Source: Escherichia phage ECO111 5-P. From it: DNA of 64,000 bases. Of this stretch, positions 13,013 to 13,385 are shown in pieces. The stretch lies in the sequence record OR844765; one strand, written 5' to 3'. The notes below the pieces were generated by a model. It was not told the DNA's origin, ran no database searches, and was given only the letters and a program-made list of their open reading frames with translations. Numbering within the stretch: the first letter of the stretch is position 1; the number at the start of each line of letters is the position of its first letter. The translations under genes and the position numbers were made by a program.

Positions 13013-13324
13013 ATGAAAACTTATCAAGAGTTTATCGCTGAAGCTACTAAACCCGATAAAAATTTTGTTATTAACACTAACGGCCCGTTAGATGATGAAT
13101 ACGCTAATGCTATTATTAAGTCAATTTCTAATCAAGGCGTTGAAGTATCAAATTTCGAATATAAGAAAAATGATACTTATATGGTAATTAGTATCAAAAA
13201 AGGTTCAAAAGCCAAAATTAAATCTGCATTTGGTGTTATGCGAGCCGACCAAATCGATAACCACGATTTTTCACAAACTGGGGTCAAACGCCAGAATACT
13301 ATTTCATCTAAAGGCATAAAATAG
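13013..13324 (+). CDS. internal-protein-like head protein with N-terminal capsid targeting sequence
   Basis: Starts MKTYQEFIAEATKP (T4 IP-type CTS); ORF track start 12968 is a GTG inside the promoter, moved to ATG 13013; follows 57B as ipI does in T4. Confidence 0.7.
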   Translation: MKTYQEFIAEATKPDKNFVINTNGPLDDEYANAIIKSISNQGVEVSNFEYKKNDTYMVISIKKGSKAKIKSAFGVMRADQIDNHDFSQTGVKRQNTISSKGIK

Positions 13325-13353
13325 TTTACATCATGGTAGGACTATGTTATAGT
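13324..13353 (+). promoter_or_regulatory. early promoter (GTTTACA, TGtTATAGT) centred in palindrome TAGGACTA-N8-TAGTCCTA
   Basis: GTTTAC 13324-29, -10 TATAGT 13348-53; palindrome arms 13337-44 and 13352-59. Confidence 0.6.
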
Positions 13354-13385
13354 AGTCCTATCAAAACAACCAAATGGAACCTAAA

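Follow-up and report, generated by a model that had tools for sequence, protein, structure and literature searches.

Why should a phage genome carry the same short palindrome five times, each time around the -10 hexamer of a promoter? The first-pass annotation had offered two answers, a dimeric repressor operator or a portable promoter-stem-loop cassette. We addressed this question in the window, i.e., the entire 64,000-nt stretch of DNA that was analyzed. It belongs to an RB69-like T4-type phage (Mosigvirus), the closest genomes being those of Shigella phage ESh27 (96.7%) and RB69 (about 95%). The repeats, hereafter called cassettes, are located in a variable early region that leads from 57B through internal head protein and tRNA genes to the e.x genes.

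The repeated early promoter and its dyad

The 31-bp unit TAGGACTATGTTATAGTAGTCCTATCAAAAC was found in five copies, all on the + strand, with no mismatch at 13337 and 13665, three at 20070, two at 22011 and one at 33292, and 100 dinucleotide-preserving shuffles of the window yielded no match. The unit of about 30 bp described earlier is thus indeed repeated five times, with the corrections that the fifth copy starts at 33292 and not at 33291 and that the conserved block is longer. Alignment of the flanks showed that this block spans the -35 (GTTTACA) to about +9 and that the sequences on both sides are unrelated; a Shine-Dalgarno (SD) sequence and an ATG follow 15 to 25 nt 3' of it. The five cassettes are organized as follows.

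13325..13367, + strand: cassette 1; -35 at 13325-13330, left arm at 13337-13344, -10 TATAGT at 13348-13353, right arm at 13353-13360; inferred +1 at 13360, followed by an internal head protein gene (ATG at 13386)
13653..13695, + strand: cassette 2; -35 TATACA at 13653-13658, left arm at 13665-13672, -10 at 13676-13681, right arm at 13681-13688; precedes a tRNA.4-like ORF whose coding sequence ends at 13904
20058..20100, + strand: cassette 3; left arm TAGGGCTA at 20070-20077 (one G.U pair), -10 at 20081-20086, right arm at 20086-20093; precedes the phrog_3723 ORF
21999..22041, + strand: cassette 4; left arm at 22011-22018, -10 TACAGT at 22022-22027, right arm at 22027-22034; precedes the ORF at 22056-22361
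33280..33322, + strand: cassette 5; left arm at 33292-33299, -10 TATAGC at 33303-33308 (T at -7 lost), right arm at 33309-33315; perfect 11-bp stem TTGATAGGACT/AGTCCTATCAA; precedes a 36-aa ORF at 33337-33447

Each copy combines a TTTACA or TATACA -35, a 17-bp spacer, TGt and the -10 TATAGT, with two exceptions in this last element, TACAGT in the 22011 copy and TATAGC in the 33292 copy. By the features of T-even sigma-70 early promoters (GTTTAC-type -35, 17 ± 1-bp spacer, TGn, TAnnnT), four of the five are fully canonical, the exception being the 33292 copy with its TATAGC. All are correctly oriented just 5' of an SD and a start codon, with the stop codon of the upstream gene 0 to 5 nt from the -35, and a promoter scan found 13325-13353 and 13653-13681 to be promoter-like, with a TG extension, 17-bp spacers and no terminator nearby. 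Furthermore, their RB69 orthologues are the high-scoring predicted early promoters Pe:76812, 76459, 69254, 67959 and 57689 (Nolan et al. 2006). This is in good agreement with the sigma-70-like early promoters proposed at first, and the cassette promoters themselves are, since that prediction, already known.

The ORFs following the cassettes encode an 87-aa internal head protein and proteins of 68, about 79, 101 and 36 aa. They fall into five PHROG families (internal head protein, tRNA.4-like, phrog_3723, phrog_9798 and phrog_3515), as expected if each copy precedes a small, unrelated ORF. We had considered the ORF after cassette 5 a truncated, decaying gene and dropped this idea, phrog_3515 being a family of 35 residues with a full-length match. 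At the same cassette, the -10 TATAGC of the window is TATAGT in RB69 and in the T-even loci L160 and L161, and the 11-bp stem is nonetheless perfect; the promoter may be crippled in the phage analyzed here.

Four of the five copies have the 8-bp/8-bp dyad TAGGACTA/TAGTCCTA, and the 20070 copy carries TAGGGCTA with a G.T pair, so that the inverted repeat previously ascribed to every copy is exact in four. As RNA, all five form a stem of 10 to 12 bp with a 6-nt loop (folding of 91-nt RNA windows). A search of the whole window against Rfam 15 at the gathering threshold matched no family to the cassettes; the only matches were two tRNA genes (15155-15226 and 15258-15331). The loop and the extended -10 (13345-13353, and the same place in the other copies) read ATG TTA TAG, a two-codon mini-ORF directly 3' of an AGGA in the left arm, which is probably a by-product of the TGnTATAGT consensus.

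Spacer stems at T-even early promoters

The dyad is not confined to the cassettes. We measured the longest perfect Watson-Crick stem between positions -32..-12 and -7..+29 and compared it to controls in which the left region of one promoter was paired with the right region of another, which keeps consensus and composition. The 18 non-redundant promoters of the window had a mean longest stem of 6.22 bp, compared to 4.70 bp in the controls, a value that none of 5,000 permutations reached. When 198 non-redundant promoters were taken from three early regions in a diverse range of T-even phages, the mean was 6.53 bp versus 4.71 bp when cross-paired (z = 25.4); stems of at least 7 bp occurred at 43% of these promoters versus 6.7% in the controls, and stems of at least 9 bp at 21% versus 1.0%. 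Enrichment was also seen with the RB69 promoters that Nolan et al. 2006 had defined independently (z = 7.2).

Only two geometries were enriched, namely, the spacer paired with -7..+5 (z = 22.5) and the spacer paired with +6..+30 (z = 11.7). Pairs of segments upstream of the promoter showed little enrichment (z = 2 to 3), pairs within the spacer or within the coding region showed none in the T-even set against cross-paired controls, and hairpins lying wholly within the promoter's own transcript were depleted (z = -3.2 and -4.1). Stems of at least 7 bp numbered 89. In 50 of them, the right arm begins between -8 and -1 and terminates between -1 and +4, i.e., at the inferred start site; another 29 overlap the SD, and the remaining 10 fit neither class. 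The class ending at the transcription start includes the five-copy cassette. Arm sequences differ between promoters, a single genome harboring many different arms and variable loop lengths. The palindrome of the five repeats therefore exemplifies a general feature of T-even early promoters.

Could the stems be an artifact of the promoter consensus, or chance? The right arm does overlap real consensus (tcct at -4..-1, A at +1, then tcaaaa), and some promoters have the right half without a left arm. However, the cross-paired controls retain consensus and composition and are still exceeded by z = 19 to 25, the slid-register and shuffle controls on the cassette family also stay below the observed values, and the restriction of the enrichment to particular geometries counts as a further refutation. 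We consider this explanation exceedingly improbable. A pattern scan of viral contigs using only the -35 and the extended -10 returned mostly chance matches in unrelated contigs and did not enter the analysis.

Several other early promoters of the window carry stems of their own.

12949..12983, + strand: early promoter with a -10-bracketing stem AGGATGA/TCATCCT, 5' of the first internal head protein gene
17483..17518, + strand: early promoter with stem TGAGAGCA/TGCTCTCA, a paralogue of the promoter at 48025
37464..37498, + strand: early promoter with stem AGGTCTA/TAGACCT
48025..48059, + strand: early promoter with stem GAGAGA/TCTCTC, carrying a compensatory C-G to A-T change relative to 17483
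25025..25077, + strand: early promoter whose spacer anti-Shine-Dalgarno arm TTCCTCCAAG pairs with the SD of its own gene, CTTGGAGGAA
28578..28627, + strand: early promoter with a 14-bp spacer-to-SD stem TTCTCCTCTAGTTG/CAACTAGAGGAGAA
32831..32881, + strand: early promoter with an 8-bp spacer-to-SD stem TTCTCCTC/GAGGAGAA, preceded by a canonical terminator at 32789-32823

The regions 17483-17560 and 48025-48100 share about 40 bp including the leader (..GGATAATAAA..). More broadly, the first 50 nt of early transcripts are poor in internal hairpins (z about -3 to -4 for 197 T-even promoters from loci L124-L193, the window and RB69), and these transcripts have the leader consensus A(+1)TCAAAAcAAA in common. 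A second repeated promoter family, TTTACAACCAAGGATGGTTGGAGTATAAT, occurs at 40123-40151 of the window and at 8932, 51004 and about 52030 of the RB69 record. Its small palindrome, AACCAaggaTGGTT, lies wholly within the spacer, a geometry that a hairpin in read-through RNA does not explain.

Read-through RNA as the probable site of pairing

Stems of at least 7 bp were found at only 3 of 24 promoters having an intrinsic terminator within 95 nt upstream, compared to 86 of 173 promoters without one (Fisher p = 0.0007), and the mean stem measured 5.46 bp behind terminators versus 7.14 bp elsewhere. Stem and terminator behave as alternatives. On the + strand of the window, no convincing terminator was detected between 12.2 and 32.8 kb, which makes read-through transcription across the cassettes plausible; a terminator scan of 12900-13800 likewise found nothing.

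Pairing was also kept through sequence change. In the 22 variants of the TAGGACTA family, double changes affect 6 of 12 pairs, compared to 2.0 ± 0.8 in shuffles (0 of 500 reached this value), and slid registers score below the true one. One pair of the cassette 5 orthologue is A-U in the window, G.U in RB69 and G-C in L160 and L161. Single non-Watson-Crick pairs within stems were more often G.U (15) than A.C (6), against 166 and 245 in chimeric nulls (p = 0.006), an excess that includes several non-independent family members. Substitutions in the arms of close orthologues showed no wobble preference (15 G.U, 12 A.C and 22 others), a count biased by taking the best copy as the reference, and when maximal stems were computed under G.U-allowed or A.C-allowed rules, both gains matched the null. 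Stems that pair with the SD follow it wherever it lies and hence are meaningful only in RNA. Taken together, the tracking of the SD, the anticorrelation with terminators, the pairing kept through change and the G.U excess point to RNA that comes from upstream by read-through.

An inverted repeat might nevertheless act in the DNA, for instance by extruding a cruciform or hairpin that affects the opening of the promoter or halts an incoming polymerase. The mostly strict Watson-Crick pairing, the lack of wobble preference among orthologue substitutions and the location of the dyad center at the -10 would be in agreement with such a role. However, the loops measure 6 to 14 nt or more and the arms only 7 to 12 bp, and long loops with short arms are unfavorable for cruciform extrusion. 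Moreover, the left arm remains duplex in the sigma-70 open complex, which argues against such a role. Since, in addition, the spacer-to-SD stems follow the position of the SD, which is sensible only in RNA, and G.U exceeds A.C after correction for composition, we regard a DNA-level role as quite improbable.

The dimeric repressor operator put forward in the first-pass annotation fared no better. In this reading, a Mosigvirus-specific dimeric repressor would bind TAGGACTA-N8-TAGTCCTA and shut off a subset of early promoters. Indeed, five to seven promoters within a single genome have 24 to 31 identical bp in common, covariation between phages would also be expected of the palindromic half-sites of a homodimer, and the mechanism of T4 early-promoter shut-off is still unknown (Hinton review). 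However, the same geometry is found at nearly half of the T-even early promoters, with at least 10 different arm sequences in one genome, and the spacing of the half-sites varies; the same half-site at a fixed spacing holds within the five-copy family only. Some copies are asymmetric, with a G.U pair at 20070 and only the right half at RB69 72339, and an operator does not predict the depletion of stems behind terminators. Because of the many arm sequences per genome, the variable loops, the compensatory or G.U changes and this depletion, the operator is not supported, and we give it a very slim chance.

The sequences demonstrate the dyads, the specificity of their geometry, the covariation of the arms and the anticorrelation with terminators. 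We lean toward the view that one strong sigma-70 early promoter is present in five paralogous copies and that its palindrome is a hairpin of read-through RNA, probably serving as an intercistronic boundary. The start sites, the read-through, and the folding of the RNA in vivo and its function are what we infer here from sequence. The left arm, in the spacer (-25 to -16), has its complement in the right arm, which covers the discriminator and start region (-7 to about +3). In the proposed mechanism, RNA arriving from an upstream early promoter would therefore fold at the cassette into a hairpin of 10 to 12 bp with the -10 in its loop. The cassette promoter's own transcript would begin at the end of the right arm, lack the left arm and stay unstructured, and read-through RNA alone would therefore fold. 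The arms appear to sit at promoter positions left free by sigma-70, and the placement of the hairpin within the promoter could be explained by an intergenic space of only about 50 bp, too little for an additional stem-loop, in which the upstream stop codon abuts the -35.

What the hairpin does may depend on its class. About one stem in three has the Shine-Dalgarno site of the gene as its right arm, and read-through RNA would be translationally silenced. [quoted passage not shown] At promoters without a stem, accessibility drops from 0.57 to 0.43, and at those with cassette-type stems it is preserved (0.58 versus 0.54). Shuffling the left arm in this latter class lowered it slightly, from 0.538 to 0.489 (p = 0.001). 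The cassette-type hairpin, which would end at the transcription start, could cap the upstream cistron in place of a terminator hairpin and keep promoter-derived RNA from pairing with the next ribosome-binding site. An intercistronic boundary is the most likely function. Since the predicted effect on accessibility at the five cassettes themselves is small and inconsistent, the specific role of this class, as a boundary or stability element, is a guess. The related idea that the main effect of the cassette-type stem is to release the SD from the pyrimidine-rich tcct motif was weakly supported, with a shift of 0.05 that was inconsistent for the five cassettes.

More speculatively, and with rather more doubt than confidence, spacer hairpins could form a genome-wide T-even code that distinguishes transcripts by origin. 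A promoter's own RNA would stay open and could be translated. RNA from upstream would either have its ribosome-binding site silenced or, at cassettes such as those described here, form a boundary hairpin, where polycistronic early RNA would be cut or trimmed to stable single-gene units. If this were true, cassette hairpins would do the work of a terminator without halting the polymerase.

Such an arrangement would matter for the biology of these phages. T4-type phages have dozens of tandem early promoters in front of tiny genes and very few terminators, so that transcription of most early genes comes from several promoters simultaneously. The accessible reviews do not explain how early expression can be independent for each gene, and early shut-off is still called unexplained. 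Half a hairpin in the spacer would let each gene treat its own and read-through transcripts differently, at no cost in genome space. The hairpin rule is simple and statistically strong, and it offers a design principle for compact synthetic operons. It also carries a warning for annotation, as such promoter palindromes should not be taken for operators.

Cassette positions and comparison with known systems

A different question is whether the cassettes move, as the other reading of the first-pass annotation implies. A PeSL-type recombination cassette would persist as portable homology for the shuffling of small genes, with the palindrome incidental or a recombination signal. Indeed, the region that houses the copies is hyperplastic, and the small ORFs they precede are unrelated. 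In RB69, the gene for an internal head protein that separates cassettes 1 and 2 has been replaced; the right breakpoint falls exactly on the -35 of cassette 2, from where the two genomes align again. Both internal head protein genes are missing from the T-even loci L124 and L126, where the match to the window extends as far as the GTTTACA after 57B and is followed by the cassette and the tRNA.4 leader, so that the junction lies within the promoter. This indel bounded by cassettes fits the shuffling of promoter cassettes that the PeSL papers propose, with the IP locus as an example (Arbiol 2010; Comeau 2014).

However, the positions of the cassettes, whose comparison across genomes had been suggested as a check, proved stable. 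The family is confined to RB69-like loci; RB69 has cassettes at orthologous places, positions match across the window, RB69 and phage phiE142, and orthologous cassettes share copy-specific variants. Because of these stable positions and orthologue-specific variants, we see no sign of recent transposition or gene conversion. A synteny break at cassette 4 was considered as a cassette-mediated exchange and rejected, being the insertion of an HNH homing endonuclease gene (21345-21995; phrog_374, E = 4.5e-59) between the ORF134 orthologue and the cassette. RB69 lacks this gene, which overlaps the end of its upstream neighbor and is without a dedicated early promoter. Another ORF absent from RB69 at its position encodes a DUF7338 protein (32229-32786, E = 5e-62). 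Recombination would, moreover, leave unexplained why unrelated promoters each have a different dyad, why arm changes are compensatory and why stems are depleted behind terminators. We thus consider it unlikely as the explanation of the repeats, and it could coexist with a role in RNA.

The stem-loop of PeSL cassettes is a terminator situated directly 5' of the promoter (Arbiol 2010; Comeau 2014). The cassettes described here resemble them in having an early promoter, a stem-loop and an SD before small variable genes in hyperplastic regions with indels, and the adjoining small ORFs are indeed variable. They differ in that the stem brackets the -10, the stop codon abuts the -35 and no U-tract follows the stem. 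No stem-loop was found upstream of the AT-rich region and -35 at the cassettes, nor does their sequence resemble a terminator, UCAAAAC following the stem. The portable promoter-stem-loop cassette therefore survives in part, through the promoter-bounded internal-head-protein indel, and fails on the missing upstream terminator stem-loop and the stable orthologous positions. The classical PeSL arrangement occurs once in this stretch, where a terminator with a 12-bp stem, a GAAA loop and a T-run (32789-32823) lies directly 5' of the 32831 promoter; the spacer-to-SD stem is present even so.

With the T-even early promoters (GTTTAC-N17-TGnTAtaaT with an A-rich UP element), the cassettes share all sequence elements. 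The complementarity between spacer and discriminator is undescribed in Nolan et al. 2006 and in the T4 transcription review, and a dyad around the -10 is mentioned neither there nor in the PeSL papers and T4 reviews. In the accessible literature, which does not extend to the older T4 papers, we found no description of dyad symmetry at T4 early promoters, and a general, spacer-encoded read-through hairpin is, within these bounds, apparently undescribed and new.

As elements of polycistronic RNA, the cassettes are similar to REP elements and T7 RNase III sites, intercistronic hairpins that protect upstream mRNA, in that a stable hairpin is found shortly 3' of a stop codon. They differ from these in that overlap with a promoter is not a feature of REP elements or RNase III sites. 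The SD-pairing stems follow a logic similar to that of the anti-Shine-Dalgarno insulators of sigma-54 promoters, where, according to the accessible part of the study, an embedded pyrimidine-rich motif is tied to lower downstream expression from read-through (Levy et al., bioRxiv 10.1101/086108). That part concerns another sigma factor, other organisms and a synthetic library, and it presents no class of stems ending at the start site.

A further parallel is provided by the T4 genes e, soc, 49 and I-TevI, in which a late promoter lies within a hairpin that sequesters the ribosome-binding site in longer transcripts. There too, the 5' arm is upstream of the proximal start, so that only upstream transcripts fold. 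The cassette promoters likewise lie within a hairpin whose 5' arm is missing from their own transcript. [quoted passage not shown] The promoters at 25025, 28578 and 32831 share the full logic, including the sequestered SD. Unlike these late promoters with their individually described hairpins, the stems reported here belong to early sigma-70 promoters and are found genome-wide.
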